From a virus (taxonomy: Duplodnaviria; Caudoviricetes): 64,000 nt of DNA. The position numbers and the translations under genes were made by a program. Numbering within the stretch: position 1 is the stretch's first letter; every line of letters begins with the position of its first letter. Positions 6,973 through 59,916 of the stretch are shown one piece after another. The notes under the pieces are model-generated. The model did not search any database. It had not been told where the DNA came from and worked only from the letters and a program-made list of their open reading frames with translations. Location: IMG/VR virus record IMGVR_UViG_3300024259_001623. One strand, written 5' to 3'.

Positions 6973-7067
6973 ATAAAGAACAAGAGGGCTTATCTTCCAG
7001 CCAGGATTACAACGTCAGTCAATCTAGCTCTTGTTCTCATTAGGAATTCAACATCAAACTACAGGGA

Positions 7068-17688: not shown

Positions 17689-17707
17689 TTAAATTCGTGA
17701 AAGTTTA

Positions 17708-17788
17708 TCAAAATCCTCTGTTTACTTTATTGTTATTGTTGCCAATATTTGACATGACCCATTTTTTTGTTTCAACTACATTTGGCAT
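17708..17788 (-). pseudogene. truncated original 5' end of the PARP gene
   Basis: Encodes MPNVVETKKWVMSNIGNNNNKV-NRGF*, versus the PARP start MPNVVETKKFVLSSIEVNSNKV; has its own GGAGAG RBS. Confidence 0.85.
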
Positions 17789-18077
17789 TGTTATTCTCTC
17801 CTGCCTCTACCCTTTTCTGCTTTCTTTTTCAGGGGAAATTTCTTCTGCATAAATACCAGACCAATCAATATCTTCGTCAATTCCACTTTTTCTTTGTGAG
17901 ACATCTACGGCTGAACATATACCATATTGATTACTACCATAATCCATATAAGCCATTAACATTTCTACTGCTTGTACAGCACCATTACGAGGCAGGGTAA
18001 AAACCATTTCCGTTGCCTTAAAGGGATATCTAGACACCCTAAAAGGTCGTACTGTAACTCTAGTATACCTTGCCATC

Positions 18078-18554
18078 TTACTTATCCTTTTCATCTTCGA
18101 GGACTTCGATCTTCATAAGTTCCTTGTCGGTGCTGCCAAGCCAAACCGGGCAAACGCCTAACCATTTACGATATGTAATCCGAACCTTCTTACCAGCATA
18201 TCCAAACAATTCTTTGCCCAGATCATGCCGGTGAGTTGTTACTGTAAATTTGCTGTTGTTTTTCACTTCTCCGCAAAAAACATCAGCTTGATAGTCTTTC
18301 CACCAAATTCCCCCATATTCAACGCTTCCGACATAAACATCGGCATGACCTTCTTCGACTGGAATAAATCCAGTCGTAGCAGATAGAGTAATGCCAATCA
18401 AAAAAACAAAAATTGAGTATGTCATAACTACCAGCAACATCCCGCCAATCCATTCTCCAACATAATTAGAATATTTGCATTCCTTACAAAGAATCTTAAT
18501 GGCAATTGCCAAAAACACAACGCTCAACGCACAAAATAAAATAAATCCTAACAT
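18078..18554 (-). CDS. membrane protein
   Basis: Two N-terminal TM helices and a soluble C-terminal domain. Confidence 0.65.
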   Translation of the reverse strand: MLGFILFCALSVVFLAIAIKILCKECKYSNYVGEWIGGMLLVVMTYSIFVFLIGITLSATTGFIPVEEGHADVYVGSVEYGGIWWKDYQADVFCGEVKNNSKFTVTTHRHDLGKELFGYAGKKVRITYRKWLGVCPVWLGSTDKELMKIEVLEDEKDK

Positions 18555-19082
18555 TTTTCTTCTCCTTCTAACTACTCATAAAATTACGTAATTCTGCCGT
18601 AAACTGATTAAAACAATGACTACACAAGTCTTTACAGGTTGCCCCATCATGACCATTGATCTGTATATTATTTTTGTATTGAACTGTTCCAGCACCACGA
18701 TCAGAATTCGCAGTTTACAGAATCCCACATTTATCGCACTTTAATGCAGCAGCCATTTTTTACTCCTTAAATGTAGTTCATCTGCAAAAAGAAAAAGTGA
18801 TGCAGTAATCAGGGAGAAATTTTAGTTATTAATATTTTTCCCAGAACCTTTACATTTTGGACAAATTTCAAAACAATCATTATCAAAACACGTACTTCCA
18901 TACGGCGACCCGATACTTACTTGACAAAAACCTCTACATTCAGTACATGCATCATTAATGATATTTTTTTGCGAAAAAATTTGAACCAAACAGAACAAAA
19001 CCATAGTAATAAAAAACGACAATAAAACAGATACCACACAAATTGCAAGAATTGCTATAAACATAATTACCTCCTTATAAAG

Positions 19083-19109
19083 AAAAAAGCCTTCCCGAAA
19101 GAAGGCTTT
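19083..19109 (-). terminator. intrinsic terminator
   Basis: AAAGCCTTC-TTTCGG-GAAGGCTTT followed by a T-run on the minus strand. Confidence 0.8.
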
Positions 19110-19143
19110 ATCTTATTTTCCACCCAGTGTCTGCTGTTACTAT

Positions 19144-19172
19144 ATTATAGCATCGAAACACCGAAAAATCAA
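19144..19172 (-). promoter_or_regulatory. sigma70-like promoter
   Basis: TTGATT-N17-TATAAT. Confidence 0.6.
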
Positions 19173-19988
19173 TTACCAAATCACTTTCTTTTTGGCAATC
19201 TTCATTTTAATGCTTTTGCGGAACCTTTTTACCTTCCAGTCCAGACCATGAGCAACAATCGCAACGTCTTTGTCAGACGCATTAGAATCGCCGCTACAGA
19301 GTTTACATTTCTCGCAAATCGTCTTCCTGCCGCCCTCTACTGACGCAGGACAAACTATTTCATTCTTTTGTAGTGGATCATCTTTATCCAAACGAATGCG
19401 GAAACAACGCCAACCCCTAGCTTTCGCACGATGATATTCAGCCAAAGTATCAACTGACGCCATACAAAACCGCTTTAAGTCTGCGTCACAAAAGCTCTTT
19501 GCCCAATGATGAGTGTAGCCAGTCCAGCCTGCTGCGTTCCTAGTAATGGCTTCCCATACTTCCATAGGAACTGCGGAAGGATCACCGTAAGAACCCATTC
19601 TGACCACACTTTCATGGAACAGACGGACATTAACAGTGTTAGGAAATTCATACTTGCGATTTTTCCAAGCATTCCAAATATTATTCGGAGCATGGAAAGC
19701 CCTGGTATAACATGTTCCCCAACCGCCATTTGCAACAGAACTATGTTTACAATCGCCACAGACAGAACAGTCCTGACCCTTCATATATGCATCAAGGGGG
19801 CTTTTTCGAGCCGGCAATATCCAAGTCTGAATTTCGTCGCCAGTCTTTTCATTGTCGCTACCATTAAAACCAGTACTAATAACAACAATCTCTTTATTAT
19901 CGATAAGGCTAGGACCCCGATACAAAACAACACCCTGCGTAAGTTTTACTCGCGGATTCGCAATCGAATACATACTAAAGCCTTTCAA
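19173..19988 (-). CDS. conserved phage Cys-rich protein (radical-SAM-like / gp88-like)
   Basis: CSVCGDC, CYT, RMGSYGDP, GYTH and CPAS..C..C.LC motifs. Confidence 0.55.
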   Translation of the reverse strand: MKGFSMYSIANPRVKLTQGVVLYRGPSLIDNKEIVVISTGFNGSDNEKTGDEIQTWILPARKSPLDAYMKGQDCSVCGDCKHSSVANGGWGTCYTRAFHAPNNIWNAWKNRKYEFPNTVNVRLFHESVVRMGSYGDPSAVPMEVWEAITRNAAGWTGYTHHWAKSFCDADLKRFCMASVDTLAEYHRAKARGWRCFRIRLDKDDPLQKNEIVCPASVEGGRKTICEKCKLCSGDSNASDKDVAIVAHGLDWKVKRFRKSIKMKIAKKKVIW

Positions 19989-20356
19989 TAAAAGAGTTTA
20001 CGCCGAAGTTTACTGACGACTCCCCCACACTTTTTCGCTCCCATTTTCAGGGAGAAATTACATTTTGACTAGGGGAAGTTATTAATTGCACTGTACTAGA
20101 TTTAATAAAATTAACTTACTTCTTATTGTCATAACTCTAATTATCTTGTAACTACAGTTATGATAACAAGTTATGAATGCTAAGTCCTAAAGCTGTTTTT
20201 TATGTTAAGACTTAATATATTGATTGTATAACATCTCTTTCGCAAAATTTTATTTACTTAGAATTATAAACCGTTATAGAATAAGTAGTTACAAAATCAT
20301 TTTTGCACTTATTTAACTGCTACTAATCTATAAATTATAACGAAGTTAATATACTT

Positions 20357-21448
20357 TTATATGGTACAGTACAAAACTTCTGCTAACTTCTTAACTACTA
20401 CCGGATAACTGAATCTTTGTTTCACGTAAGTGTATGCAGCATCAGCCTTTACAGTCATCTCTTCTCTATGAGAAAAAGCATATCTCATCCTTTCTCTGAT
20501 TTGAGACACAGAGATATAGGGCCAGAGAGCATTTTTAAATTGGAAGATGTTGTCTAGACATGGTATTTTATTATAGCCTTCAGGGACCAATAATAATGAA
20601 GTATCCGTATTACCATACTCAACACAACCAGAATGATCTGGGACAATCGTAGGGACTTTTAAGGCCATTGCCTGTAATGCAGGTAATCCAAAACCTTCTC
20701 CTAAACTTGCAGAAATATAACAATCAAAAGATTTTATATAACTCGCTACGTCATCATCATTTATAGTCGAAACATCTATAATAATTTCAGGAAATTCTCC
20801 AATCTTTTTTATAGATCTTTTTATTCTTTTTATAGTATTTTCGACTTGTACTCTGGTTGTATTTGTAGTTTTGATAGTGAGAGAAACATCATCTTGTTTT
20901 GAGAATTCTTCTAAGAAAGCTGTTATCAATTTCTCATAATTTTTTCTTTGCTTCCATGTTCCCATGAACAGAAAATTAAAACTAGTTTTATGTACAACTA
21001 ATTTTAAAACTTCAGGTGTAAAAACATTAAAGTTTATACAGTGAGGTATATAAAAAATAGGAGTTGTGAGCTTTAGTTTTTTAAACTCTCTATAATTAAA
21101 CATGCTCGGTGTTATAATAGCATCATTGCGATTTAAGTAAATACTCCAATTATCCGGAGGACTTGTAGTTTCAAAAGTCGCATAACCTATTGTCCTACCT
21201 ACACTTCTAACTCTTCTCTGCATTTGAGGGATACAATGATAAAGAGCAATACTCGGATTTTTTACACTTTTTTTAATTAGTGATTTATAGAAATCATGCA
21301 GGTCACTATTTATTTTTTTATGAGAACCTAAGTCTAACGCAGTTATATTAACATCATAACCAGCTTCATGAAGTGCTTGTATATTATTTTTTGCTGCTGT
21401 AGCAAAGCCTGTAGCAGATAAAAAACATATATAGTTGATAGGGATCAT
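20357..21448 (-). CDS. GT4 family glycosyltransferase
   Basis: RKNYEKLI, SLGEGFGLPALQAMA. Confidence 0.9.
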   Translation of the reverse strand: MIPINYICFLSATGFATAAKNNIQALHEAGYDVNITALDLGSHKKINSDLHDFYKSLIKKSVKNPSIALYHCIPQMQRRVRSVGRTIGYATFETTSPPDNWSIYLNRNDAIITPSMFNYREFKKLKLTTPIFYIPHCINFNVFTPEVLKLVVHKTSFNFLFMGTWKQRKNYEKLITAFLEEFSKQDDVSLTIKTTNTTRVQVENTIKRIKRSIKKIGEFPEIIIDVSTINDDDVASYIKSFDCYISASLGEGFGLPALQAMALKVPTIVPDHSGCVEYGNTDTSLLLVPEGYNKIPCLDNIFQFKNALWPYISVSQIRERMRYAFSHREEMTVKADAAYTYVKQRFSYPVVVKKLAEVLYCTI

Positions 21449-22098
21449 AACACAGTCATTATCGGATTTTTAGTCAACTCATAATTTTCAGATAACACAC
21501 TAGCATTTATAAATTTTATATCGGCAGATTGATAAACACCAGTTCCCCCATGTATATGTCCAAATACATGTAGCTTTGGCTGTATTTCATACATTCTACT
21601 CAAAAGTATAGGACAACCAGCCAACGATCCATCCCAATGTACATAATCTCCATATCCTTTTGGTGGGCCATGAGTAATTACAATATCAGTGTCTAGTGGA
21701 ATAGTTTGATATAAAAGTGCTGCTCTAGTTTTACCAGCATTACCTGTGGGAAAATTAAATGCCCAATTATACCCAAAATGTGGACTCCAGGGACTTCCCC
21801 ATATTTTAATTCCATCAATCTCTACACTATCATTATAAAGATAGTGCCACGAAAGCTCAATAGTCCATTTTTTTGCATACTGGAAAACAAAATCGTGGTT
21901 ACCTGCAATCCCTACTATATTTTTAGCAGGCACAGAAGAAAGCCAACTGGCGAAATGATCTTTCAACCAGTTGGCTTGCCACGCTGCTTCGTGATTCGTA
22001 GTAGGGCAGATATCTCCCGCAATGATTAACAAGTCACATTCAGGGACCTGTACCTCATCCATCTGTCCATGCATATCAGATATACATGCAATTATCAT
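21445..22098 (-). CDS. calcineurin-like metallophosphoesterase
   Basis: SDMH, AGD, GNHD, THGPP and FGHIH motifs. Confidence 0.92.
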   Translation of the reverse strand: MIIACISDMHGQMDEVQVPECDLLIIAGDICPTTNHEAAWQANWLKDHFASWLSSVPAKNIVGIAGNHDFVFQYAKKWTIELSWHYLYNDSVEIDGIKIWGSPWSPHFGYNWAFNFPTGNAGKTRAALLYQTIPLDTDIVITHGPPKGYGDYVHWDGSLAGCPILLSRMYEIQPKLHVFGHIHGGTGVYQSADIKFINASVLSENYELTKNPIMTVL

Positions 22099-22106
22099 AT
22101 ATTTAC

Positions 22107-23234
22107 TTATCTCTCATCAGCAAGGTAGATAGGACTACGCTGCTTGATGATTAAACGACGCCCCTTAATATACTCTTCTTCCAGTGGCTTGATAACAATG
22201 CCTTCTCTGCGAACATCCGGATAAAGCATAGAATACCCATTAGAGGCTTGCTGTATCGTTACACCCTTCGGGAACAGATCAGTCTCGTGAGGATTCTTAG
22301 ACAGCAACCAATCTTCTAATGTTATATTATAGCCAAGAGTAGGAACAAGTATCAATCCTGCCTTCTTGCCAAACACCTTATTAATGTAATCAATAAAGAT
22401 CGGTGTATTAACCCAAAGACCATTGATTTTAAGGTCAAACAGTCTCACCGTATTCTCTGGGAATTTATAGATATTTTTTTGGACTTTCGGACCAAGCATC
22501 TCTCCATAAACAGTAACGCTTTTGCCTGGATGTTCATCGGCAATTGCATTAGCAAAATCCAAAATACCTTCTCTAATAGCTACTTGCCACCAAGGATTAG
22601 TAGACTTATCCTCAGTTTCAATAGTATGTCTACGAGAGTTAACGTACTCAGTTCTATCAACTCCAATAGTGACAGAGAAATTAGACCCTTCTACTTTCTC
22701 AGAAATCCAGCAAGGTCTAGTCATTAGTGCTTCCACTAGATGCTTATACCTTTCTGCACCTTCAATATCATAGATAGTAAGATCTTCAGGTAAAGTAGTA
22801 AGTTTAGTCTGATTCCCCCCCATCATGCTAAACTGAACAGGTGGCTCATATTTCTCTACTCCAAAATACTGAGTTAACTGTTCGGTGGTAAAAGGCTCAT
22901 CAATCTCGGTAGGATCAGGCTTCTCAACATCCTCGCCCAGCATATCCAGCTTACCTACAATGCCTTGACTAATCTCATCCCTTAGACGGACAGTTTTGAC
23001 ACGGTTTTTCTTACTGCCGGATAATTTTCCCAGTAATCCCATCTTCTCAGAAACCCAATCAGGAAGCAGAGAATCGATAGGGAAGTAGATAACCTCTTCA
23101 CCGGAAGTATAAACACCTTTAGGAATAACAAATTGAAATTCCATACCATCCAGTTTAGCCAGTTCAAGTCTATCTGCATTAGGATGCGGATATACTTTCT
23201 CTATAGTCTCAATTGTTACTCCGAAAAATGCCAT
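22107..23234 (-). CDS. RNA ligase, DRB0094/Rnl2-like family
   Basis: N-terminal HPNADRLELA OB-like domain; EKVEG motif I, YGE, FD, REGIVIK and IIK. Confidence 0.9.
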   Translation of the reverse strand: MAFFGVTIETIEKVYPHPNADRLELAKLDGMEFQFVIPKGVYTSGEEVIYFPIDSLLPDWVSEKMGLLGKLSGSKKNRVKTVRLRDEISQGIVGKLDMLGEDVEKPDPTEIDEPFTTEQLTQYFGVEKYEPPVQFSMMGGNQTKLTTLPEDLTIYDIEGAERYKHLVEALMTRPCWISEKVEGSNFSVTIGVDRTEYVNSRRHTIETEDKSTNPWWQVAIREGILDFANAIADEHPGKSVTVYGEMLGPKVQKNIYKFPENTVRLFDLKINGLWVNTPIFIDYINKVFGKKAGLILVPTLGYNITLEDWLLSKNPHETDLFPKGVTIQQASNGYSMLYPDVRREGIVIKPLEEEYIKGRRLIIKQRSPIYLADER

Positions 23235-23245
23235 TTTATTATCCT

Positions 23246-23869
23246 TTACTTAGTTTTAGTTGCAGAAACTACCTTATGACTGTGGAAAGAACGATACACT
23301 CCATCCTTCAAAATGAAGATCTCGTTCGATGCTCGTTTATTTCCCGCATTCCAAGTGATTAACAAGGCTCTATCAAGCTTTACACTAACGCCAGTTCCCT
23401 TATGAATACCGTTCAAAATACTTTTACCATCGGGTTGAATCTCAATTGTTCCATAAGTGAACTTATAAACGCCTTCCCACTTATGAGCTACACTTGTCGG
23501 AGGCAGAACAGGGACCGGCTTAATCTTAGGTGTTGCGGCCGGCGTTGCAGCTTCAATTTCTTTGTTAACCTCGGCCATTCTAAGAACAAGAATCTTAGAC
23601 AACGTTGCATCACCCTTGTCAACAGACTTCTTCAATTCTCCATGAAGTTGTTTAACATAATCCTTCTTAGCCTGCAATACCTTTGCTTGATATTCTTTTT
23701 CGGCCTGCTTCATGGAATTCTTTAGCTGGATATTAGCAAGCATCAAACCAAGATGCTGATAAGTATCCGCAGTAGGAGCCGCAGGTGCAGGCTTTGTTGT
23801 CGGGGTCTCTGCAACAACAGTACTCGTAGTGATAGCAATAAATAAAATCGCTAAAAATAACTTCTTCAT
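23246..23869 (-). CDS. secreted protein
   Basis: Signal peptide MKKLFLAILFIAIT..VVA and Pro/Ala linkers. Confidence 0.7.
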   Translation of the reverse strand: MKKLFLAILFIAITTSTVVAETPTTKPAPAAPTADTYQHLGLMLANIQLKNSMKQAEKEYQAKVLQAKKDYVKQLHGELKKSVDKGDATLSKILVLRMAEVNKEIEAATPAATPKIKPVPVLPPTSVAHKWEGVYKFTYGTIEIQPDGKSILNGIHKGTGVSVKLDRALLITWNAGNKRASNEIFILKDGVYRSFHSHKVVSATKTK

Positions 23870-23956
23870 TTTAAATCTCCTTTTCTTATAAGTACATGAG
23901 AGAACCTGGGATGATCACCCAGGTCAGTCTCATGCTTCAGTAACGATGTTTGTTAC

Positions 23957-24421
23957 TTACACAGTCGCGGCGGGGTCAGTTACAGTATCAGTTTCGGTGA
24001 CTGTTACTGTAACTTCGTTTTCTGGTTCATCACCGGCTTCTGCTTCCGATTCGGCTTCCGAATCTTCGACAACCGTAGCAACTACAGTTTCATCTACAGC
24101 ATTACCATCTGCATCAAAAACCTTAGTCCAATGACCAGCGTATTCGCCTTCAGTCAGCTTGGTAAAACCAGGCTTTGGCCGACCTCGGCCCTTTGCCAAA
24201 CGGGAAACCAAATTCCCATCGGCATCCTTCAACTCGACAGCGATTTCGCCATCAGGCCCAAAGGTAATATACTCAGGGGTAAAGCGAACAGCGTCAGCAA
24301 CGGGGCTAACAATAAAATCGCCATTGTCTTGCTTCACGGCGCCACGCGGGGGACGACCCTTACCCTTGACCTTACGACTCAGTTCGTTTCCTTCTGCATC
24401 AACATAAATCAGTTCAGCCAT
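23957..24421 (-). CDS. AT-hook DNA-binding protein with an acidic tail
   Basis: KGKGRPPRG and KGRGRPKPG in duplicated modules; E/D-rich C-terminus. Confidence 0.65.
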   Translation of the reverse strand: MAELIYVDAEGNELSRKVKGKGRPPRGAVKQDNGDFIVSPVADAVRFTPEYITFGPDGEIAVELKDADGNLVSRLAKGRGRPKPGFTKLTEGEYAGHWTKVFDADGNAVDETVVATVVEDSEAESEAEAGDEPENEVTVTVTETDTVTDPAATV

Positions 24422-24479
24422 TGCTACATCTCCTTAAAAAGTTTAAATTTGCTTTCTACTATATTCTAGCATAAAATCG

Positions 24480-25328
24480 CTAAAATGCAACACAATAATC
24501 TGTTTTTTCGAGGAATTTTTTCAATTTACGTAAACCGTTTTCCTCATGGTGTTTAGCCCACGGCCTGCTTACTCCAAGCTCTTTACCAACATCAGAATAA
24601 GTGGGTTTCTTTCCATCAAAAAAGTATCTCATTTCAACAGCGACTCTTTCTTGGTAAGTTAGTCCAGCAGAATTATCTTTTAATGCTGTTCTAATAACAT
24701 CTATTAACTTACTATAATCGGTGGATAGATCTTCTACATCTTCTCCATCTTCAGTGTCATAAGAGACAGGGAACTTTTCTTCTCTCTCTTGTTTCTTCTT
24801 AATTTCTCCGGCAAAAGTTTTTATAATAGACCAAGTTGCATAAGTCGAAAACTTATTGCCTCTAGAAATATCGAATGTCTTAATAGCTCTCAGTAATGCT
24901 TCATTACCGACAGATACCATATCTTCATAATCTAAACCACTCTTCAAAAATCTCTTTGTTGTATTTATGACTAGTGCTAGATTATATTCTACTAACTTCT
25001 TTTGCATTGCTAATACAACTTTATACCAATGCATTATCTCTTGTTTAGCTGTATCCGTGAGTCCATCAGGATATGACTCTTTTACCTGAGAAATTCTTTT
25101 TCGCGCTAAATTATAACGCAAAAATACATTCCGTTCTTCTTCCCGACTTAATACAACAATATTTTTAGACGTTCTAACAGGAAGATCACAATTGAAAAAC
25201 CAAGATACATCCACATCCTCTGGAAGGTCTTGGTTCTCAATGCGTTCAGAAATTGTAGAATCCTCAAAATCAGGATGGTCTACGTATCTATTCTGTTCTA
25301 AAATATTCTTTAAGTCTTCTAGTTCCAT
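24480..25328 (-). CDS. sigma-70 family RNA polymerase sigma factor
   Basis: Region 2 (LVEYNLALV, EDMVSVGNEALLRAIKTFD..RGNKFSTYATW) and a region 4 HTH. Confidence 0.92.
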   Translation of the reverse strand: MELEDLKNILEQNRYVDHPDFEDSTISERIENQDLPEDVDVSWFFNCDLPVRTSKNIVVLSREEERNVFLRYNLARKRISQVKESYPDGLTDTAKQEIMHWYKVVLAMQKKLVEYNLALVINTTKRFLKSGLDYEDMVSVGNEALLRAIKTFDISRGNKFSTYATWSIIKTFAGEIKKKQEREEKFPVSYDTEDGEDVEDLSTDYSKLIDVIRTALKDNSAGLTYQERVAVEMRYFFDGKKPTYSDVGKELGVSRPWAKHHEENGLRKLKKFLEKTDYCVAF

Positions 25329-26491
25329 TACTTCTCTTCTTCAAAACGATTCATAGCAGTAGAAGGCTCAAAACCTTCCAATACATTGCCAGTAGGTCTA
25401 AACAATTCGAACAAACTATTACGAAGTTTAGACTTAGACCCAGTTCGTATAGTCTCTAAAAAATCTCGTTTTCTACAGGGAAAAACGAATCTTTTAACCC
25501 TTGGGTCGATAGTATTGTTTGGATTCTGCAAATACATTCCTAACTCTTTATCACCCAACTCTTTAGTAGATAGATAAACCTCTTCTACCTCAGTTAAAAG
25601 ATCGTCCAGCTTCCCATTCAGTATAGATTCTATAGCATCAAAATCTTTACGAAATTCCTCTGGCAAATCTTTTTTCGCATTTTCAAGATCATCTAAGTTT
25701 CTCATCATGTCCCAGATAACCAATGGAGTGCAATTAGAAACTAAGCGATGCAACCTGCAATACTCATCACCCTTGATCTTGATACGATAACCATTAGTAA
25801 ACCGTACAACGAAACCCTCTTCATTATACGACAACGTTTTGCAAACTCCCAACATATCATCCAAAGAATCAAAATGAGCAGTTTCAGTCAAACCCATTCC
25901 AGTCTCTCTACTGGTGGCTTCCAATATCTCTCTTTGCAATTCATGACCAGTATCTACAAAGTACCCCCCCAGTAAAACTAATCCCTCAAAATCATAAGTT
26001 ACAACAATGCGATTCTGAGTATAGATTATTTCCACTAAATAAGTAGCATTCTCATGCATATAATCAAGCATGTAGCTCTGTAAATTCTTCTCAGCCCAAA
26101 CAGCTTGATCAGAAGCAAAAGAACCACGAGTAGCTACATTCCATTTTCCATTCCAAAAATAAACGATCCCTAAAGATCCATCCATCTTCAAAGTAGTAGA
26201 AAAACCCAAATCAGGTAGGTCTTCTTCTACCTCTCCATAATTGAAGAACTTGGGAAAAGGAGCAGCGACTACCTTCTTTTGAGAAGGGCAAAGGATTAAA
26301 CCTCTGGCCACAAGAGTAAAAATGTTCCAATGCTTATCATAAGTAGCAGTAGCACTATAATTGAAAAGCTCTAAATCATCTTTAGTTTGAACGTTGATGT
26401 ATCCAGCCTCTACCTCTTCCTGAAGACCTTTATACAAGTCATCGAACGGAAGAGTTAAAGCAGGATGTATGTGATATTCTATTTTTTCCAT
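25328..26491 (-). CDS. T4 Rnl1-like RNA ligase
   Basis: ARGLI, FPKFFN, KMDGS, TRGSF, EII, EGFVV and KIKG..Y. Confidence 0.92.
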   Translation of the reverse strand: MEKIEYHIHPALTLPFDDLYKGLQEEVEAGYINVQTKDDLELFNYSATATYDKHWNIFTLVARGLILCPSQKKVVAAPFPKFFNYGEVEEDLPDLGFSTTLKMDGSLGIVYFWNGKWNVATRGSFASDQAVWAEKNLQSYMLDYMHENATYLVEIIYTQNRIVVTYDFEGLVLLGGYFVDTGHELQREILEATSRETGMGLTETAHFDSLDDMLGVCKTLSYNEEGFVVRFTNGYRIKIKGDEYCRLHRLVSNCTPLVIWDMMRNLDDLENAKKDLPEEFRKDFDAIESILNGKLDDLLTEVEEVYLSTKELGDKELGMYLQNPNNTIDPRVKRFVFPCRKRDFLETIRTGSKSKLRNSLFELFRPTGNVLEGFEPSTAMNRFEEEK

Positions 26492-44425: not shown

Positions 44426-46096
44426 CTATATTTTACCGAGAATAAAATCGCTAACCATTTGAGGCGTTGCAGTATCGAAACCTACAACGTTCAACGAGTT
44501 ACGATCTTCGTTGTCAGTGATGCTATAAGGATTAGCTAACATACCACAAGCAATCATCTTAGCATCGTTTCTTCTTTTCTTACTGTCCCGATACAACTTC
44601 AAAGACCGATCTACATGAGTCTCGCCAGCCCAAGTCTCCATATCAGAGAGAATAACAAAAGCATCAACATCTACATTCTTACTCTTTGCCCAATTGGTAG
44701 CGATAGCTGCATCGGTGCCACCAAAGTTGCTCATCTGGGCCTTCTTCATTGCAGTCTGAATCGAATCCTTGGCAGTAATCTTCAAGTCTACCAAATTATG
44801 AGCGAAGCCCATGATATGATAGTTAGGTTCGGTTCTGGCAAAGACCATAGCCATTGCAGCAGCAGCAACGCAAGGACTCATATTACGGATACCAGATACT
44901 TCACCGCCAGCCATAGAACCAGAAACATCAACCGCCAAAAGGATATTCTTACCAGTTGGCTCAACATTCTTGAAGGACAGATAAAAAGCATCGTCCAACG
45001 CATCAAGAATCTGAGGAACTGGCTCATAACCTAACGAAGTAGGATAACCCCAATACGAATGGGTAAACTGATTGCTATAGGCACACATCGCTGCTAATAC
45101 GCTCAAAGGATGAATTCTGGCCTTATGCAACACTTCCTCATTTCTCAAAGTCTCACAAACATACTTTGTAGACGAGGATAGCGGAGTCAAAACGCCTGCC
45201 TTTGTCATATTACGGATATTACGAATCATAGCAGTCATTGGCATACCATCCAGCAATGCCTTCCATACCTTCTTATCATAAAGAGTATTAGGTACGCTCT
45301 CACGAACCAAACCATACTTCTTAATCATAGAAACCATTTCCTTGCTATCATCTACAGTCTTAGCAGTCTCATGTGCCCAGATATATCTAGTGGCATCATT
45401 CTTCTCCAACTTCGCAAACTGGACCTTGGTGAATCCCTTTCTTCCCTTAACGATATACTTCAAAACGGTTTGCATATCCTTACTACCGGGGATCAAGTGG
45501 ATTTTACGCAGCAAATCTCTATGCGACCAAGACGCTTCGCCTTCTACCTTACGCTGAGGATACTTACAAGCCTGGAATGCTACGGAATTAGGAGTCTTAC
45601 TGGTATACCAACTACCAATAGCCTTACGCAAACCTCTACCCCATCCTCTCATTTGGTCTACATAAGTCACGAAACTGAACAAATATGTTCCGATACGACA
45701 GACCTTGTTTAAGTTATCCAAAGCGTACTTACGAATCTCGTCATTATCGCAAGAAGCTGCTAAAGCCATAACAAAGATAGCAGGATCATTCTTGGCTGCA
45801 CGACCTTCATTAGAAACTGCGATAGTTTCGTCAATAGCAGCCATTCCGCCTTCGGTAGTCTTAAACAGCTTAGTTACATTCTTGGCGTTTTCCTTAGCGA
45901 ACTTTTTCTTACCAACATAAAAAGTTCCGCCATCAGAACCAAGAATTAAGAACCTACGAAGATGCTCTAACCGATCAACAGAATAAACATACCCACCGGC
46001 GTTATTCTTGACTTGACGCTTGTTCGCTCTCTGAGTCTGAGGAACGTCTACGTTACGTGAAGCTAAACCACTATCCTTAACAATATTCTTAGCCAT
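44426..46096 (-). CDS. rsr: Ro60/Rsr TROVE-domain RNA-binding protein
   Basis: NNAGGYV, RRFLILGSDGGTFY, MPMTAMIRN, RIHP, vWA MIDAS LAVDVSGSM, GGTD, DAFVILSDMETW, VVGFD. Confidence 0.96.
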   Translation of the reverse strand: MAKNIVKDSGLASRNVDVPQTQRANKRQVKNNAGGYVYSVDRLEHLRRFLILGSDGGTFYVGKKKFAKENAKNVTKLFKTTEGGMAAIDETIAVSNEGRAAKNDPAIFVMALAASCDNDEIRKYALDNLNKVCRIGTYLFSFVTYVDQMRGWGRGLRKAIGSWYTSKTPNSVAFQACKYPQRKVEGEASWSHRDLLRKIHLIPGSKDMQTVLKYIVKGRKGFTKVQFAKLEKNDATRYIWAHETAKTVDDSKEMVSMIKKYGLVRESVPNTLYDKKVWKALLDGMPMTAMIRNIRNMTKAGVLTPLSSSTKYVCETLRNEEVLHKARIHPLSVLAAMCAYSNQFTHSYWGYPTSLGYEPVPQILDALDDAFYLSFKNVEPTGKNILLAVDVSGSMAGGEVSGIRNMSPCVAAAAMAMVFARTEPNYHIMGFAHNLVDLKITAKDSIQTAMKKAQMSNFGGTDAAIATNWAKSKNVDVDAFVILSDMETWAGETHVDRSLKLYRDSKKRRNDAKMIACGMLANPYSITDNEDRNSLNVVGFDTATPQMVSDFILGKI

Positions 46097-46141
46097 TTTT
46101 CATCTCCCTTTTATAGTTATATCCCAAAATTTTTATAAATT

Positions 46142-46270
46142 ACTAGGTAAGTTAGTAGCATGGTTATATGCCCCCGTTCTATCATTAAACTATATCGCCG
46201 CTATTGCGACGACACCAGGAATCAAACCTGATTTTGGGGTTTATGGATAACCCAATGCCTTCGACCCAGT
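46142..46270 (-). ncRNA. yrlA: Y RNA 1 (YrlA-type, permuted tRNA domain)
   Basis: 5' ACTGGGTCGAAGG / 3' CTTACCTAGT Ro stem enclosing a T-arm, a loop-closed acceptor and a D-arm. Confidence 0.85.
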
Positions 46271-46290
46271 TATGTTCTTCTATATAAAAT

Positions 46291-46423
46291 ACTAGGTAAG
46301 TTATTAGTATGGTTGATATTACTGACGCTCTGCCGTTGAGCTATATACCGGCTTTGCCGATATAGCAGGATTCGAACCTACAACCTTCAGTTCCGGTTGA
46401 TAAACCAATACATTCGACCCAGT
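46291..46423 (-). ncRNA. yrlA: Y RNA 2 (YrlA-type)
   Basis: Same termini; GTAGG-TTCGAAT-CCTGC, acceptor closed by GGC-AAA-GCC, TAGCTCAACGGCAGAGC D-arm. Confidence 0.88.
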
Positions 46424-46461
46424 TATTTTCTTCTTTTTTATCCCTTATATTTTTATAAAAT

Positions 46462-46589
46462 ACTAGGTAAGTTGTTGGAATGGTATAATGCTCTGCCAAT
46501 TGAGCTATGTCGCTACATTGTAACGACAATGGGAATCGAACCCATAACCTTCTCATTAAAAGTGATAAACCATATCCATTCGACCCAGT
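46462..46589 (-). ncRNA. yrlA: Y RNA 3 (YrlA-type)
   Basis: Same termini; ATGGG-TTCGATT-CCCAT, TGTCG/CGACA, TAGCTCAATTGGCAGAGC. Confidence 0.88.
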
Positions 46590-46715
46590 TATTTTCTTTT
46601 AAAGCAAAAAATAAGTTGCCTAACAAATTAATATTAAGCAACTTATCCTTTTTTAAGCACCCGACGCCCTCTTACACCAATACATTTCCGAACGAGTCGT
46701 CACAGTTTATAAAAA

Positions 46716-46780
46716 AAGGCAAGTTAGTGTCAATAGCGTAGTGATCATTAAAAGTGATAAGCTATCGAAATTCGGCCCTT
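46716..46780 (-). ncRNA. Y RNA 4 (short)
   Basis: AAGGGCCGAA / ACTTGCCTT stem, TTATC motif, apical ATCA-CTTTTAA-TGAT hairpin. Confidence 0.7.
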
Positions 46781-46799
46781 TATTTTTCTATTTTATATA

Positions 46800-46879
46800 A
46801 AAGGATAAGTTTACGTTAATAGTTTTATTGGTTTTGATCTCTTAAATCATAATTGATAAACTATCAACTTCGACCCTTT
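46800..46879 (-). ncRNA. Y RNA 5 (short)
   Basis: AAAGGGTCGAAG / ACTTATCCTT stem, TTATC motif. Confidence 0.7.
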
Positions 46880-46976
46880 ACTTTCTAAGTTAATACCTAT
46901 TTTTTTATTTATAGGTCTTTTGACGTTAGGTATCAAACGCCCGGTAGCGAACCGGCTGACCTCCATTCTAAAACAA

Positions 46977-47042
46977 AAAGGCAAGTTATTATTAATAGTT
47001 ATTTTTATCCCTTTGATGATAAACTATTAAATTCGGCCCTTT
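46977..47042 (-). ncRNA. Y RNA 6 (short)
   Basis: AAAGGGCCGAA / ACTTGCCTTT stem, TTAATAGTT/AACTATTAA upper stem, TTATC motif. Confidence 0.7.
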
Positions 47043-47110
47043 AAAAAATCTCGGTTCCTACACCGTCATATAGACGGGAGAAGAAAATTCGAGATCATTT
47101 CTTCAAAAGA

Positions 47111-47280
47111 TAATATGAGGCGGCTCTAGGAAAAATTAAAAAACCTGAAACCTATTATCCAAACCTTACATCGGCTCCTGTCAACTGTTCTCTCCTGGTA
47201 AGGAGCCTACGATACAAACCAAACCGACTCAACTTTGCAATAAAACAAACTTTATGAAAAGAAAGAGCCGCCTCATATTA
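47111..47280 (-). ncRNA. 170-nt rod-like structured RNA candidate
   Basis: Perfect 17-bp terminal inverted repeat TAATATGAGGCGGCTCT; inner GGCTCCT/AGGAGCC stem; U-rich bubble. Confidence 0.55.
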
Positions 47281-47282
47281 AA

Positions 47283-47379
47283 CGAAGACCGCTGGATTCG
47301 AACCAACAACCTCAAGGGCTAATCCTTAGTCCCAACAACCTTTTTTGCCCTTGCGCTCTGCCAATTGAGCTACATCTTC
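47283..47379 (-). ncRNA. tRNA-like RNA with an expanded anticodon loop
   Basis: Canonical D- and T-arms; 7-bp CAAGGGC/GCCCTTG stem closing a 27-nt loop. Confidence 0.65.
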
Positions 47380-47385
47380 TTATAA

Positions 47386-47452
47386 ATCGGATTAGGTTTG
47401 TCCGTAGGGGGCTTTCATTCTCTATATGATAACCTACAAACTTCGACCCGAT
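47386..47452 (-). ncRNA. Y RNA 7 (short)
   Basis: ATCGGGTCGAAG / ATCCGAT stem, TTATC motif, 5' end just downstream of the promoter. Confidence 0.65.
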
Positions 47453-47457
47453 GTTAT

Positions 47458-47486
47458 ATTATAGTATCGCGTTATCAGAAACGCAA
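47458..47486 (-). promoter_or_regulatory. sigma70-like promoter for the ncRNA/Ro60 island
   Basis: TTGCGT-N17-TATAAT, 5 nt upstream of Y RNA 7. Confidence 0.7.
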
Positions 47487-47496
47487 CAACTTTTTT

Positions 47497-47907
47497 TCAA
47501 CTTTCTTCGCTTTCGCCTCCATACTCAAAATTGGAAAACTCTTCAGGGAGATTATCGTTAGTCTCAACCACTTCCATGACAAAAACATTAAAAGCGTCAA
47601 GTTCACAAAACGCTTTCATAAAAGCAGTCAAATTATTTCTCATCAGTTGATAAATGCACCCCAGAATAAGATGATTATAATACAGATCATCTCCAAATTT
47701 ATTTTGTATCTTTTGTATATCTCTGGCAACATCTGCCCTGGTAATAGAATTACCAGTAGAAGTCATTTCGTTGCCTCTCACAAAATCATGGTGATAGGTA
47801 AATGGAACCCTACCATATATAATACCAGGAATATCAGACAACTTCAGCCAAGCTACCAATTCTTCTACCAAATGATGTTTTTTAATTTCTTTCATTTTAG
47901 TCTCCAT
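47497..47907 (-). CDS. hypothetical protein
   Basis: Start moved to METKMKE because the longer ORF overlaps tRNA-Leu. Confidence 0.55.
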   Translation of the reverse strand: METKMKEIKKHHLVEELVAWLKLSDIPGIIYGRVPFTYHHDFVRGNEMTSTGNSITRADVARDIQKIQNKFGDDLYYNHLILGCIYQLMRNNLTAFMKAFCELDAFNVFVMEVVETNDNLPEEFSNFEYGGESEES

Positions 47908-47915
47908 ACTGTTAA

Positions 47916-48000
47916 TACTCCCTCCCGGGATCGAACCGGGACACCCGAAGGTACAGGTGCCTAAAACCTGTGCGTCTGCCATTTATTCCGCCAAGGGAGC
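47916..48000 (-). tRNA. tRNA-Leu(UAG)
   Basis: Loop TT TAG GC, long variable arm, A73. Confidence 0.93.
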
Positions 48001-48204
48001 TTATATTACTCCACCAAAAAATAACTGCTGTTTCAGGGAGATCAAGAAGGCAACGCCCAACGCATGAACCTTTTGAACCGACTTTCCTTTTTAGTCATGT
48101 CGAAGTAAATCCTGAAAGGTGCTAGACATTTCTTCTGAGTCACCACTAATCTCAGCGTAAACTCTTTTTTCTACCAATTCAATGAATTTCATCTATATTA
48201 TCCT

Positions 48205-48651
48205 TTATTTAAACTCTTTGGGAATATATTCTAATTTTAGCATTATTGCAACTGTATAACCACCCAAATGTCTCCATACAACATCTAGATAATCTTTAAA
48301 AGTTGGATAAAGATTTTCTTTTGGTGCTATTTTCTTATCTGTGCCTTCATCCGATATCTTCCCCCCGAATTGCAGAGCTACTTCATTAATGATAGAATGA
48401 TCTACCCACCAAATAAAATTCCCGCCGCCACCATGTCTCATTTCAAAATGTTTTTCGCCTTCTAGCCAGCAAATTCTACTCTCATTAATTTGTGGACATT
48501 TAATAGTCCAGACATGATCTGCAAAACCATCTTCTGAGTATTCTACCGTGAGAGTATTTTTAAACTTATCTTTAATAAGCCTATTAATTAGTTCAGTAAT
48601 TTGTTCTGGATCAATTTTCTTACGAGTTTTCACCCAAGCATGATTAGCCAT
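48205..48651 (-). CDS. hypothetical protein
   Basis: Coupled (TAATG) to the ligase C-fragment. Confidence 0.6.
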   Translation of the reverse strand: MANHAWVKTRKKIDPEQITELINRLIKDKFKNTLTVEYSEDGFADHVWTIKCPQINESRICWLEGEKHFEMRHGGGGNFIWWVDHSIINEVALQFGGKISDEGTDKKIAPKENLYPTFKDYLDVVWRHLGGYTVAIMLKLEYIPKEFK

Positions 48652-49262
48652 TATTCTTCTATCCCATTTTTTATAATCTTTTCATATCGCCAATGACAAC
48701 TTGTTTGTACATGATTGGCTCTTACATATTTTGCTAATGATCTCTGGAAGTCTCCATACGAAAAACTATCAACCAGTCTAACAACATATCCTTCACATTC
48801 ATCATTGTTATGTTCTTTTTCAAATAACTCTTTTATCTTGTCAACGTCCCAGATGCCTCTATACAGTTCAGGGACAACTGATACCCCTAAAACATCTGCC
48901 CATTCTACCATATCATCCCAACTCAAACATTCATTCTTATCATTCCATATACTAAACAGATAAAAATACGATTTTAGATTTTTATAGTGAATAGAATGTT
49001 TGGCAAATAGGTTCTCTCCACAGAATCTCCAACCATCTGGAATCTCATAAGATATTTTAGAATGAAGATTCTTTACCCAACCTCTGGATGGATGAGAAGC
49101 TCCGAAAATAGATCGAGCGTGTAAATAGTCTTTATACATAGAACAATTATGTACTAATATTCCATTGGCAAAAAAATTATTATTACCACTGACGGATATA
49201 TCATATAATTTTGATTTATTAGATATTTTCTTTATTTTTTTGATTTTTACTTTTTTCAACAT
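48651..49262 (-). CDS. split-intein C-half (39 aa) plus the C-terminal part of an RNA ligase
   Basis: LYDISVSGNNNFFANGILVHN|C intein block F/G end, then ligase motifs CGEN, FSIW, EGYVVR and KYVR. Confidence 0.92.
   Translation of the reverse strand: MLKKVKIKKIKKISNKSKLYDISVSGNNNFFANGILVHNCSMYKDYLHARSIFGASHPSRGWVKNLHSKISYEIPDGWRFCGENLFAKHSIHYKNLKSYFYLFSIWNDKNECLSWDDMVEWADVLGVSVVPELYRGIWDVDKIKELFEKEHNNDECEGYVVRLVDSFSYGDFQRSLAKYVRANHVQTSCHWRYEKIIKNGIEE
49146..49262 (-). mobile_element. IntC of a naturally split intein
   Basis: Ends in HN with Cys+1; 9 Lys versus 1 Asp. Confidence 0.9.
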
Positions 49263-50271
49263 TTTTTAACCTATCTAATAATAATTCCATTAACTCACAA
49301 TCATCAATGGCTTTCATCTCTTTTTCCCATATATAAATAACAAAATAATTATATTTTTCTGCTATTGCATTTTTTAGAGAATCTTTTTTCCAAACCTCTC
49401 CTGCTTTTATGATACCATTAGGAAACTTTAAAATATCATCTTTTTTATAAATTTCAGGATTAGCGTGCCAATAGTCACCATTAATTTCTAAAATTATTCT
49501 TGTTTTATTTATTTTGAAATCGAAACTTTTTCTATTTATCCAAAATTGTCTAGTAAAACCGATATTAAGTTCTTCTAAAACATTAGAAATTCTTGTTTCA
49601 AGCTTACTAGAGAAATTATGAACAAAGTTTTTACATCTTTTCTGTATTATAATATTCTTTTGCTCATCTGATAAGTTTTTCCAATATTTTTTATATCCAT
49701 CGTGTAACTTATCCATCCTAATCTTTTTATCTTCTGGCGAAATTATTTGCCAGTGATCATTCATTTTTCCATATCTATTAGGAAGCGATTTTTTACCGTA
49801 ATTCTCTAACATATAGTCATGCAACCATGAATAATATTCTTCAGACTTCCATATATTATCTACTCCATAATTTTTCAAAAAAGTTTGTTTCTTTTTATCT
49901 TGTATATCTTTTGATTTAGAAACATTATCAACACCATATTTCTTTTCGCATGTATTCTTATATTTTTGTCTAGTCCTTATCGTAGACGTTGCCTCTCTTT
50001 TGGTCCTTTTATCAATGCCGAAATATTTTAATAAAAATTGACTTTGTACAAAATTAAGTCCATATTCTTGTAAAAAATCTGTTAAACTCCAAAACTCATT
50101 AATGTATTTATTTTTAAAATCTTCTTTATCAAATATATTTTTCTTATCAAAACATATTTGTTTAAATCTTAATTCCTGTTTATCTAAATTGATATTGTTT
50201 TTTTTAGCACAAAAATAAATATGACGAGAATTTCTTTTGTTAATTTGTTCTTTACATATAAAGCATTCCAT
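49219..50271 (-). mobile_element. Vsr/DUF559-like (EDxHD-type) homing endonuclease
   Basis: YGVDN repeats, S.LE, FDF, LEINGDYWH and WE motifs; sits between the intein halves. Confidence 0.85.
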
Positions 50272-50328
50272 AGAGTTATCTCCTTTTTATTACTATTCAA
50301 CAATAAAAATGGAGATTCCTCTATTTTA

Positions 50329-51147
50329 TTAGTCGTTTATAAGAAATTCATCATTTTCTGATAAATCTTTGACGCATCTATAACAATTTAAATTAGGCAA
50401 CCAAACTCTATGTTCTCCCGTTATTTTTATCATTCTGCCATCTTCTAACTCAATTTCATACCATTCTTTTTTACTATTCTCATTGATAGAGAATCCATCA
50501 ATTTTTTTGTATTCAATCTGACCAGTTTCAGCATCCATAGATAAAACTTTACAATCTATTTTTTGCTCACAAACGTCTTGTATGCTCTTTATTCCCAAAT
50601 CCGTATTTAACTCAGTTTCTTGGTCAAGACAGTTCTCACCGTCCATTTTAACGGTCACAACGACCTCTCTACCTTCAAAGTGTTCTGTAGACTTTAATTG
50701 TCGATCATCATTAGTTAATCCAGGACTCCAAGGCAAATGTAAAGTTCTAGGATACTTAATATATTTAGAAAATAAATATAATACTTTCCCTTGCTTTAAA
50801 ATCTTTTGTACTGAATGATCAAAGAATAATTCTCCTTTTAATCTTTCTCCGCTTGGCAACATAATATTTCCCCACTTATCATATTCATATTCGTCATATA
50901 AATGAGAAGGAATAATTACGTTTTCGATGCCAGCAGCCATTCTTAAATCTTCACAAGAAAGATGAGTTTGTTCAGCCGCAATATGATGATATCCGCACAA
51001 AGAGACACCGTTATCTAAATGATAACCGCCATCATCCCATAAACGTCTTTCTATGATATGATGAGCATCTTGCGCATCTTTTCCGCATATAACGCATTTG
51101 TGGTTATCTCTTTCAAAAACAGATTGTCTAAATTCATCTCTAGTCAT
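50329..51147 (-). CDS. HNH domain plus RNA ligase N-part plus split-intein N-half (100 aa)
   Basis: FERDNHKCVICG..DAHHI HNH domain; KYPRTLHLPWS and KMDGEN motif I; then CLDQET...TGEHRVW intein blocks A/B. Confidence 0.92.
   Translation of the reverse strand: MTRDEFRQSVFERDNHKCVICGKDAQDAHHIIERRLWDDGGYHLDNGVSLCGYHHIAAEQTHLSCEDLRMAAGIENVIIPSHLYDEYEYDKWGNIMLPSGERLKGELFFDHSVQKILKQGKVLYLFSKYIKYPRTLHLPWSPGLTNDDRQLKSTEHFEGREVVVTVKMDGENCLDQETELNTDLGIKSIQDVCEQKIDCKVLSMDAETGQIEYKKIDGFSINENSKKEWYEIELEDGRMIKITGEHRVWLPNLNCYRCVKDLSENDEFLIND
50332..50631 (-). mobile_element. IntN of a naturally split intein
   Basis: Begins with Cys1; TxxH block B; 23 acidic versus 12 basic residues. Confidence 0.9.
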
Positions 51148-58948: not shown

Positions 58949-59109
58949 TGCAGAGAGTTGGACTCGAACCAACAAACCTAAGTAGAATAAAATCTAAGTT
59001 CATTCTTAACTTGCATACTAGACATCAATGTCCTTGTCATTGCACCCAGTTATGCTCTAGGTCATAGAACCATAAGCTCTAATTGCGTTACCAATTACGC
59101 TACCTCCGC
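58949..59109 (-). ncRNA. 161-nt expanded tRNA-like RNA
   Basis: GCGGAGG/TCTCTGC acceptor, GCGT/ACGC D-stem, GTTGG-TTCGAGT-CCAAC; multi-hairpin insert; 5' end overlaps the sigma-factor stop codon. Confidence 0.65.
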
Positions 59110-59916
59110 TTTAAATCCTTCCGCATACCTCGCAATATCAGCATTAATTCCACTCCTATCAATACTAAACAATCTATGAACTTCGCGTAAAGCCGCTTTA
59201 TATCTGTAATGCGCTCCACTCTCTGTCAGTCCAAGTTCCTTGGCTATTTGAATTTTTCCCTCTCCAAAAACAGCCGATTTAATAAGAATATCCCTATGTT
59301 CATTACTAAGCTTACTAATCAACGAATATACCAAATCTTTATCTTCAAGAGCCTGATCTGGACTTCTGTGAGGATCAAGTATCGGTGTATCAAAGTCCGG
59401 CGTTATCGTTATAGATTGTTTTGTAAACCATTTAACAGCACTATCTATGCAAGATATATTTTTATCTGACAAATTAGCCTCTTCTTTAATACGTTTTGGA
59501 GACTCATCTTGCTTACCATGCAAGTCAAATTGGGCCTTTCTATATGCAGCCATGTTACGACGAACAGAACGAGGAATACCACTCCATTCAGATTGACAAT
59601 CAACTATCATACCACGAACCCTTCTATACGCATAAAGAACAAAAGAATCAATCCCTTTGTCTTGCTGCTCCGGGTCAAACTTTCGTAACGCTTTCACTAA
59701 ACCTATAGAAGCTTCCGCTATCAAATCATCAAGGTCTACCTGTATATTAAAATACTTTTTAGTAGTAGAAGATAATTTAATAATCCAAGCCCAATAATTT
59801 TTTACCAAAATATTTTCATCATGGCTATTATGATCGGCTTTATATCTCAGCCATACTTTTTCTAACTTATTTTTATCTAAGCTTTTAGCTATGTTTAATC
59901 TTTTTTCTTTCTGCAT
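59095..59916 (-). CDS. sigma-70 family (FliA/sigma28-like) sigma factor
   Basis: DDLIAEASIGLVKALRKFDP, YAYRRVRGMIVD and a region 4 HTH IAKELGLTES. Confidence 0.9.
   Translation of the reverse strand: MQKEKRLNIAKSLDKNKLEKVWLRYKADHNSHDENILVKNYWAWIIKLSSTTKKYFNIQVDLDDLIAEASIGLVKALRKFDPEQQDKGIDSFVLYAYRRVRGMIVDCQSEWSGIPRSVRRNMAAYRKAQFDLHGKQDESPKRIKEEANLSDKNISCIDSAVKWFTKQSITITPDFDTPILDPHRSPDQALEDKDLVYSLISKLSNEHRDILIKSAVFGEGKIQIAKELGLTESGAHYRYKAALREVHRLFSIDRSGINADIARYAEGFKAEVA

Follow-up and report, generated by a model that had tools for sequence, protein, structure and literature searches.

A non-coding island of 1.4 kb in the virus record IMGVR_UViG_3300024259_001623, a Caudoviricetes DNA of 64,000 nucleotides (nt) from IMG/VR that was analyzed in full and is called the window hereafter, very probably consists of seven Y RNA genes whose products are partners of a Ro60 protein encoded downstream. 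At the level of sequence, the original prediction for this DNA, according to which an array of Y RNAs serves the Ro60 of the phage, is supported by the handle architecture of the elements, compensatory changes in both handle stems, a permuted tRNA domain in three of the seven, linkage of the RNA family to Ro60 genes, and a promoter found in four phages. Phage Ro60 with Y RNAs is already known: YrlA-like RNAs have been reported in 22 phages in a survey totaling 355 YrlAs in 276 genomes (Chen et al., 2014; PMC4201824), Ro60 of the phage phiLo has host PNPase as well as two Yrl RNAs as binding partners (PMC12135203), and three highly expressed regions lie upstream of an Rsr-like gene in a Listeria phage (PMC12282133). 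What is new is an expanded form with two RNA architectures, which is common to a clade of large phages. The window DNA is present in at least 11 seawater metagenome runs, indicating a marine phage, and a DNA similarity search against GenBank phages gave no match.

Genes around Ro60 are on the minus strand throughout this part of the window, and the 1.4-kb stretch 5′ of Ro60 contains no credible open reading frame (ORF). The ORF at the lower end of the island is predicted to encode an intact Ro60, and the TROVE/vWA gene that had been proposed below the array is borne out in this respect. Its product matches both TROVE (PF05731, 1.4e-34) and vWA_Ro60 (PF25045, 6.4e-47) of Pfam, and residues 18-554 match the solved structures of vertebrate Ro60 (1yvp and 9nen, 4e-113) and of Deinococcus Rsr (2nvo, 1e-103). 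The HEAT-repeat ring of TROVE and a vWA domain with the MIDAS, the features that define a Ro60/TROVE protein, are both present: the metal-binding motif DVSGSM is kept, and D390, S392, and S394 are invariant in a protein alignment (A6). The nearest protein relative, P0001, is 78% identical.

The seven elements (E1-E7; Table 1) share the strand of Ro60 and are located 45-1357 nt upstream of the gene, as is usual for Y RNA genes. The count, sizes, and two types given in the original prediction all stand. There are exactly seven elements with common 5′ and 3′ pairing strands, all on the minus strand, and the predicted sizes match the handle boundaries; the four short copies (67-80 nt, E1-E4) are without a tRNA domain, and the three long ones (128-133 nt, E5-E7) enclose a T arm, a loop-closed acceptor stem, and a D arm in permuted order. 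In each element, (N)GGG(U/C)CGAA is found close to the 5′ end, and (A)ACUU(A/G)(U)CC, with U's after it, close to the 3′ end. Either GGGUCGAA or GGGCCGAA is found on the 5′ strand of all seven, together with the single bulged C and unpaired 3′-strand bases characteristic of Y RNAs. RNAfold gives one common plan for the seven, consisting of a 7-bp terminal helix, the bulged C with G-U and A-U pairs, an extra AAC on the 3′ strand, a variable second stem, and UUAUC. The second stem has a different sequence in every copy, and UUAUC comes directly after its 5′ strand. Fold z-scores of the elements span -2.1 to -4.1.

Table 1. Predicted features of the Y RNA island, the Ro60 gene, and the RNA ligase genes in the window.
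Feature	Position	Strand	Handle	Remarks
Promoter, sigma-70-like, TTGCGT-N17-TATAAT	47458-47486	-		4 nt ahead of the first Y RNA (E1); activity predicted
E1, putative short Y RNA	47385-47453	-	47452-47386, 67 nt	R1 51.0 bits; z -2.06; Rfam sbRNA (RF01656) 24.8 bits
tRNA-like RNA, not a Y RNA	47283-47379	-		between E1 and E2; 7-bp anticodon-type stem, 27-nt loop; cloverleaf fold
Structured spacer, ~160 nt	47117-47278	-		closed by an 11-bp GC-rich stem, GAGGCGGCUCU / AGAGCCGCCUC; fold -47 kcal/mol, z -2.64
Nested hairpin, then U run	47044-47100	-		z -3.0
E2, putative short Y RNA	46975-47043	-	47042-46976, 67 nt	R1 74.6 bits; z -2.08
E3, putative short Y RNA	46799-46880	-	46879-46800, 80 nt	R1 67.6 bits; z -2.54; Rfam sbRNA 23.9 bits
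E4, putative short Y RNA	46713-46782	-	46781-46714, 68 nt	R1 63.4 bits; z -3.18; Rfam sbRNA 21.2 bits
20-bp hairpin, A run before, U run after	46606-46651	-		terminator-like; fold of 46591-46712, z -3.97
E5, putative YrlA-type Y RNA	46461-46590	-	46589-46462, 128 nt	R1 33.7 bits; Rfam YrlA 29.4 bits; z -4.09; covariation
E6, putative YrlA-type Y RNA	46290-46424	-	46423-46291, 133 nt	R1 35.4 bits; Rfam YrlA 29.7 bits; z -2.58
E7, putative YrlA-type Y RNA	46141-46271	-	46270-46142, 129 nt	R1 29.6 bits; Rfam YrlA 17.6 bits over the full model; z -3.24
Ribosome-binding site, AAGGGAG	46104-46110	-		ahead of the Ro60 gene
Ro60 (TROVE + vWA) gene	44426-46096	-		556 aa; Pfam and PDB matches, full-length homologs
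RNA ligase, intein-interrupted (PF09414)	48651-51147	-
RNA ligase, Rnl1-like (T4 Rnl1-like)	25328-26491	-
RNA ligase, Rnl2-like	22107-23234	-		PHA02142 OB fold

The common pairing was assessed on an alignment (A4) that combines the four short elements of the window with 17 from six other phages (21 in total); GGG, GA, UUAUC, CU, and one C are invariant in it. A hand-drawn structure with 19 pairs was compared with 500 shuffles and with controls in which the 3′ partners were slid by 1-3 columns. Paired cells amount to 84.0% in A4, against 68.1% in the shuffles (0/500 reach the observed value) and 35-56% in the slid controls; double-change cells number 74 against 30.7, and the covariation score is 0.526 against 0.243. 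Helix 1, the end helix of about 7 bp, is paired at 93.7% over the 21 sequences, and both sides have changed in four of its nine pairs. The pair adjacent to the bulge is C-G in 16 elements, U-A in four, and something else in one; behind the bulge, G-U is kept in 19/21 and A-U in 21/21, followed by the unpaired AAC on the 3′ side. The bulged base itself is sometimes U in the elements of relatives. Compensatory pairing in the terminal stems, on the absence of which the original prediction was to fall, is found in both handle stems. Contigs from four seawater DNA runs contained only identical fragments of the window without variants, and thus gave no covariation at the population level.

A covariance model, R1, was built from A4, that is, from short elements only, with E5-E7 outside the training set. 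Short elements of the window score 51-75 bits; the long ones align to the entire model at 29.6-35.4 bits, the tRNA-like body being accommodated as an insertion. No further match at E<=1 was found on either strand of the window. With filters off, a search of 45900-48200 returned the same seven only, and the next best match has 10.5 bits; hence, the island holds seven elements and no more. The simple pattern CGAA-N6-12-TTATC has 15 matches in the window, where 5.0 +/- 2.3 would be expected, and 7/15 are within the island on one strand.

The variable part enclosed by the handle takes two forms, a permuted tRNA look-alike of the YrlA type in three elements and short dissimilar loops of a YrlB-like kind in four. 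In E5-E7, a T arm (GGUUCGAUUCC type) precedes the closed acceptor hairpin, which has 9-10 bp and a loop of 3-4 nt, and this hairpin in turn precedes a D arm (UAGCUCAAUUGGCAGAGC type); in E5, a variable-arm hairpin is placed between the handle and the T arm. This predicted body is the published architecture of YrlA (T arm, acceptor stem, D arm), an RNA described as a structural tRNA mimic (bioRxiv 10.1101/312249). Compensatory changes are seen in 13/36 predicted pairs of the tRNA-like domain among E5-E7, affecting the T arm, the D arm, and the closed hairpin, and 11/15 pairs covary when 17 sequences are considered, with the T and D arms included.

Among known systems, bacterial and phage YrlA/YrlB with Rsr/Ro60 (PMC4201824; RF02553; 10.1101/312249) share with the window elements the 5′ GNCGAA and a Ro-binding stem formed from both ends. 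The YrlA order is also that of E5-E7, in which the T arm comes first, the D arm last, and the closed acceptor hairpin between them, and in which a further hairpin can precede the T arm; moreover, the YrlA type is accompanied by short, YrlB-like RNAs, and the genes lie on the Ro60 strand no more than 4 kb away. The window differs from these known systems in having seven genes in one island (three YrlA-type and four short), an invariant UUAUC, an AT-rich marine jumbo-phage genome, and YrlA scores of 17.6-29.7 bits against a threshold of 69. The Thermus phage phiLo (PMC12135203) likewise encodes Ro60 with CGAA-motif Y-like RNAs upstream of the gene, but it has two RNAs instead of seven and no tRNA-like member has been described there; for phiLo, experiments have demonstrated the binding to Ro60 and an assembly with host PNPase, whereas the window system is known from sequence alone.

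Handle-type elements were further sought in Ro60-bearing loci or by motif. Relatives gathered by Ro60 protein only, with the contigs fetched afterward, all contained the same kind of elements. Phages with Ro60 of 54-61% identity carry six (L002), six to seven (L005), six (L008), and six (L011) elements, and more distant phages carry three and one, these copy numbers being lower bounds from the single model R1. A scan of IMG/VR by the handle-plus-UUAUC pattern alone yielded 69 viral loci with 84 R1 matches, up to five per locus. In 31/69, the short stretch retained also encodes Ro60, as a rule on the strand of the RNAs and directly after them. Furthermore, in 80 bacterial Ro60 loci (L086-L165) from many phyla, picked by protein only, there are 31 R1 matches in 24 loci (0-3 per locus). 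All 31 are on the Ro60 strand, 30 of them within ~700 nt of Ro60 and one ~1.1 kb upstream. Two R1 elements lie just upstream of the annotated Ro-like gene in Gordonia phage BearBQ, and mycobacteriophage Alice has one. This linkage in strand and distance, seen in both bacteria and phages, indicates that the RNA family is a genuine Ro60 companion.

The statement that seven copies exceed the two to four of characterized systems agrees with the survey of Chen et al. (2014; PMC4201824), with the two Yrls of phiLo (PMC12135203), and with the 0-3 matches in the bacterial loci. Seven is not unique to the window phage, since its relatives carry six to seven, and its rarity is qualified by the 18 sbRNAs of Caenorhabditis elegans (PMC4726728). 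Among the loci compared, only this clade of large phages shows such an expansion, with arrays of six to seven members.

The promoter predicted at the head of the island was confirmed as a sequence feature: it is the single match to TTGCGT-N16-18-TATAAT in the window, where 0.04 would be expected. TTGCAA/TTGCAT-N17-TATAAT is placed 6-9 nt ahead of the first Y RNA in L002 (799-827), L005 (347-375), and L008 (909-937), so that four phages including the window have a head promoter in the equivalent position. Separate promoters ahead of E5-E7 were also sought, but no convincing -35/-10 pairs were found, and sites from a generic promoter scan were no more numerous than in shuffles.

Four observations weigh against a set of Y RNAs serving Ro60. 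First, all Rfam matches are below the curated thresholds, which are 69 bits for YrlA (RF02553) and 38 bits for Y_RNA (RF00019) and sbRNA (RF01656), in a comparison with 4227 families. E5, E6, and E7 reach 29.4, 29.7, and 17.6 bits with YrlA, and the best scores among relatives are 34.1 for YrlA, 31.7 for sbRNA, and 26.2 for vertebrate Y_RNA, so that the vertebrate Y RNA/sbRNA threshold is not reached, either. The comparison with Rfam models that had been proposed as a check of the elements thus points to Y families (YrlA and sbRNA in the window), but not at the curated level. Below-threshold matches are confined to YrlA, Y_RNA, and sbRNA, besides matches of the tRNA model over the tRNA-like parts, and no unrelated family matches consistently; the YrlA model appears to be too narrow for AT-rich phage sequences. 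Second, in L002, L005, L008, and L011, most of the array is 2.5-5 kb upstream of Ro60 and does not adjoin it, which means that co-transcription with Ro60 is not a conserved feature. Third, E1 lacks the two pairs behind the bulge. Its 3′ handle reads CCUAAUCC in place of the common strand, with loss of the G-U and A-U pairs, and E1 is therefore regarded as a degenerate copy; the presence of one copy with a more degenerate 3′ strand had been noted originally. Fourth, the covariation is partly derived from paralogs and related phages, which inflates the shuffle-based significance.

From these features, we infer how the RNAs would be transcribed and processed, how they would bind Ro60, with which partners, and to what end in infection. 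The head promoter would transcribe the island, possibly as two blocks split at the hairpin 46606-46651, which stands between the block of short elements (E1-E4) and that of the YrlA type (E5-E7). This hairpin may end the first block, made of E1-E4 and other structured RNAs, and E5-E7, lying between the hairpin and Ro60, may be co-transcribed with Ro60. The transcript would then be cut into individual RNAs, each of which would load onto the outer face of the Ro60 ring via its handle, as suggested by homology with the Xenopus Ro-Y complex and with the Y RNAs of Deinococcus, Salmonella, and phiLo. The variable module could gate the Ro60 ring or tether Ro60 to differing partner proteins, for which tRNA-binding enzymes are proposed in the case of the YrlA type and an exoribonuclease such as PNPase in the case of the others. 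The outcome may be RNA surveillance, repair, or turnover during infection; three RNA ligases and 13 tRNA genes in the window fit such a role. The earlier idea that the RNAs may be interchangeable adaptors or decoys is a reasonable hypothesis.

A purer form of the decoy idea, in which the RNAs chiefly sponge host enzymes and Ro60 merely stabilizes them, is improbable. In this scheme, the bodies of E5-E7 and the CUUUUAA hairpins of E4 and E5 would soak up tRNA-targeting defense nucleases or tRNA-modifying enzymes. Such a function would suit the heavy tRNA-related countermeasures represented by the same 13 tRNAs and three ligases, as well as the known stabilization of Y RNAs by Ro60 (PMC4726728), and E5 is indeed called tRNA-Lys(UUU) by ARAGORN (46520-46593, minus strand) and scores 33.7 bits with the Rfam tRNA model. 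Both the ARAGORN call and the Rfam tRNA match were rejected as false positives; they join the 5′ handle of E5, the T arm, and the variable-arm hairpin with its CUUUUAA loop. In the YrlA crystal-structure paper (10.1101/312249), a hairpin at this position ahead of the T arm is described as a long variable arm, not as an anticodon arm. Moreover, CUUUUAA, which is also the apical hairpin loop of E4, belongs to a stretch of 16 identical bases common to E4 and E5 (UUAUCACUUUUAAUGA), so that the two loops represent one duplication event rather than two observations. The tRNA-like part is, in addition, missing from 4/7 RNAs. The proposal that the CUUUUAA loops, with the 7-nt loops of relatives, mimic anticodon loops against anticodon nucleases was downgraded on account of the variable arm and the duplication.

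It is far less probable that the short elements are not separate genes and serve as cis elements of a long leader or operon transcript, such as terminators, processing or stability hairpins, or repeat-type spacers, leaving only the YrlA-type RNAs as true Ro60 partners. Every element ends with a closed stem and then a U-rich run like an intrinsic terminator, and there is one clear promoter for the whole island, both of which would be expected of such a transcript. However, the top scores with the handle model belong to the short elements, GGG, GA, UUAUC, and CUU are invariant across phages while the stems covary, and the short type stands alone beside Ro60 in bacteria and actinophages. The arrays of relatives, located kilobases from Ro60, cannot be a Ro60 leader and also count against this explanation.

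The pentamer UUAUC is a feature that the elements have in common with animal RNAs. In the window clade, it is present in 21/21 short and in 3/3 long elements, where it follows the upper stem and opens the loop on the 5′ side, and a scan by the handle only, in which the motif was not required, found it in all array members but one (UUAAC). Among the bacterial matches, 23/31 have UUAUC and 5/31 UUACC, a proportion to be read with the preference of R1 itself for UUAUC. The Rfam consensus of YrlA is without UUAUC. The Y_RNA and sbRNA consensus lines, GGUCCGA-N-...GGGUUAU(C) ... ACUUGAC(C/U), have the same layout as the R1 consensus, GGgCCGAA...gGuuUAUC...AACUUGcCC, this comparison with animal RNAs being based on consensus lines and below-threshold matches. 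Vertebrate Y RNAs and sbRNAs resemble the phage elements in the 7-bp lower helix, the bulged C, the extra 3′-strand bases, the AACUUG(A)CC of the 3′ strand, the GGGUUAU(C) with which the upper stem ends, UUAUC at the loop 5′ end, and a multi-member family with variable loops. They differ in that the phage matches reach 21-32 bits against the threshold of 38, an RNA polymerase III context is absent from the phage, the GUG-CAC motif is not conserved, and sbRNAs are reported not to be Ro-bound. Bacterial Ro60-linked RNAs (e.g., L101 1431-1495 and L088 4872-4935) read GGGCCGAAG-N-UGGGUUAUC ... ACUUG(U)CC, near the vertebrate Y RNA consensus; they come from Chloroflexota, Planctomycetota, Verrucomicrobiota, Myxococcota, Armatimonadota, and other phyla.

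Nematode sbRNAs were not recovered in Ro immunoprecipitates and have a role in DNA replication via the upper stem and UUAUC (PMC4450293; PMC4726728). A comparable Ro60-independent function of some of the phage RNAs, e.g., in phage genome replication, is hardly credible: UUAUC is invariant at the loop 5′ end as in sbRNAs and vertebrate Y RNAs, where it is a conserved trait (PMC4450293; PMC4726728), and sbRNA family matches exist below threshold, but the RNA family, as sought in Ro60-bearing loci or by motif, is tightly linked to same-strand Ro60 genes, and the GUG-CAC upper-stem motif appears inconsistently, in some elements only (e.g., L005 5598-5671).

For Y RNAs as Ro60 companions, a broader reading would be that the jumbo-phage clade has made the Ro60/Y RNA pair a six- to seven-member adaptor kit, that the Y RNAs of prokaryotes and animals share true homology, and that UUAUC contacts Ro60 or a conserved co-factor. 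Taken together, these propositions are speculative and somewhat doubtful; they draw on the invariant (G)GGUUAUC atop the upper stem, which phage Y RNAs have in common with the animal Y/sbRNA consensus and with RNAs linked to Ro60 in many bacterial phyla. Bacterial Y RNAs have been held non-homologous to vertebrate Y RNAs (PMC4726728). If the reading is true, UUAUC would be a contact for Ro60 or its co-factor rather than a eukaryote-specific DNA-replication signal. The conservation of UUAUC outside animals is a side result worth testing, and its occurrence from phages to animals offers a direct way to examine whether the Y RNAs of prokaryotes and animals are related, which is disputed. In a limited search of the literature, no description of six- to seven-member arrays or of prokaryotic UUAUC conservation was found. 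One Ro60 with seven putative partner RNAs of two architectures would offer a compact natural system for studying partner recruitment and the role of Ro60 in infection, bearing on the function of the variable half of Y RNAs and on the reason for keeping several of them. R1, for its part, is a working covariance model of the short (YrlB-like) class, and it finds Ro60 partners in several bacterial phyla for which there is no usable Rfam model.

Other structured elements are interspersed among the Y RNAs. The tRNA-like RNA between E1 and E2 scores 43 bits with the Rfam tRNA model, with a 31-nt insertion, and has a good D arm, T arm, and acceptor stem; ARAGORN made no call for it. Arrays of relatives are also interspersed with low-scoring tRNA-like elements (L005 1784-1854; L008 1362-1435 and 2099-2231; L011 6166-6237). 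The structured spacer that follows has no sequence relative in any fetched locus, and the same applies to the other non-Y spacers of the island except the nested hairpin 47044-47100. The latter is 85% identical over 41 nt to L008 1756-1796: an inner part, CUUCUCCCGUC ... GACGGUGUAGGAACC, is conserved between the window and L008 1745-1800, and the outer stems differ yet pair in both. This hairpin could be a terminator or an additional small RNA.

Several genes near Ro60 or elsewhere in these genomes are related to RNA metabolism. In L002, the closest relative with DNA compared, a gene for a class II aminoacyl-tRNA synthetase homolog (tRNA_anti-codon + tRNA-synt_2; 6188-7273) comes right after Ro60, and in L005, L008, and L011, the next gene after Ro60 encodes a DUF4379 protein. 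The intein-interrupted ligase of the window appears to be divided between the ORF 50329-51147, which ends in the N-part of the intein, and the ORF 48651-49262, which opens with the C-part and continues as the ligase; the ORF 49219-50271 matches DUF7487 (4e-13) and weakly DUF559 (E 0.0067, below threshold), and its product is possibly an endonuclease. On the minus strand, there are also a PARP-like protein with WGR and regulatory domains (15630-16916) and two sigma-70-family factors (24480-25328 and 59095-59916), and the genes at 15630-26491 and 59095-59916 make up a region rich in RNA-repair and transcription functions.

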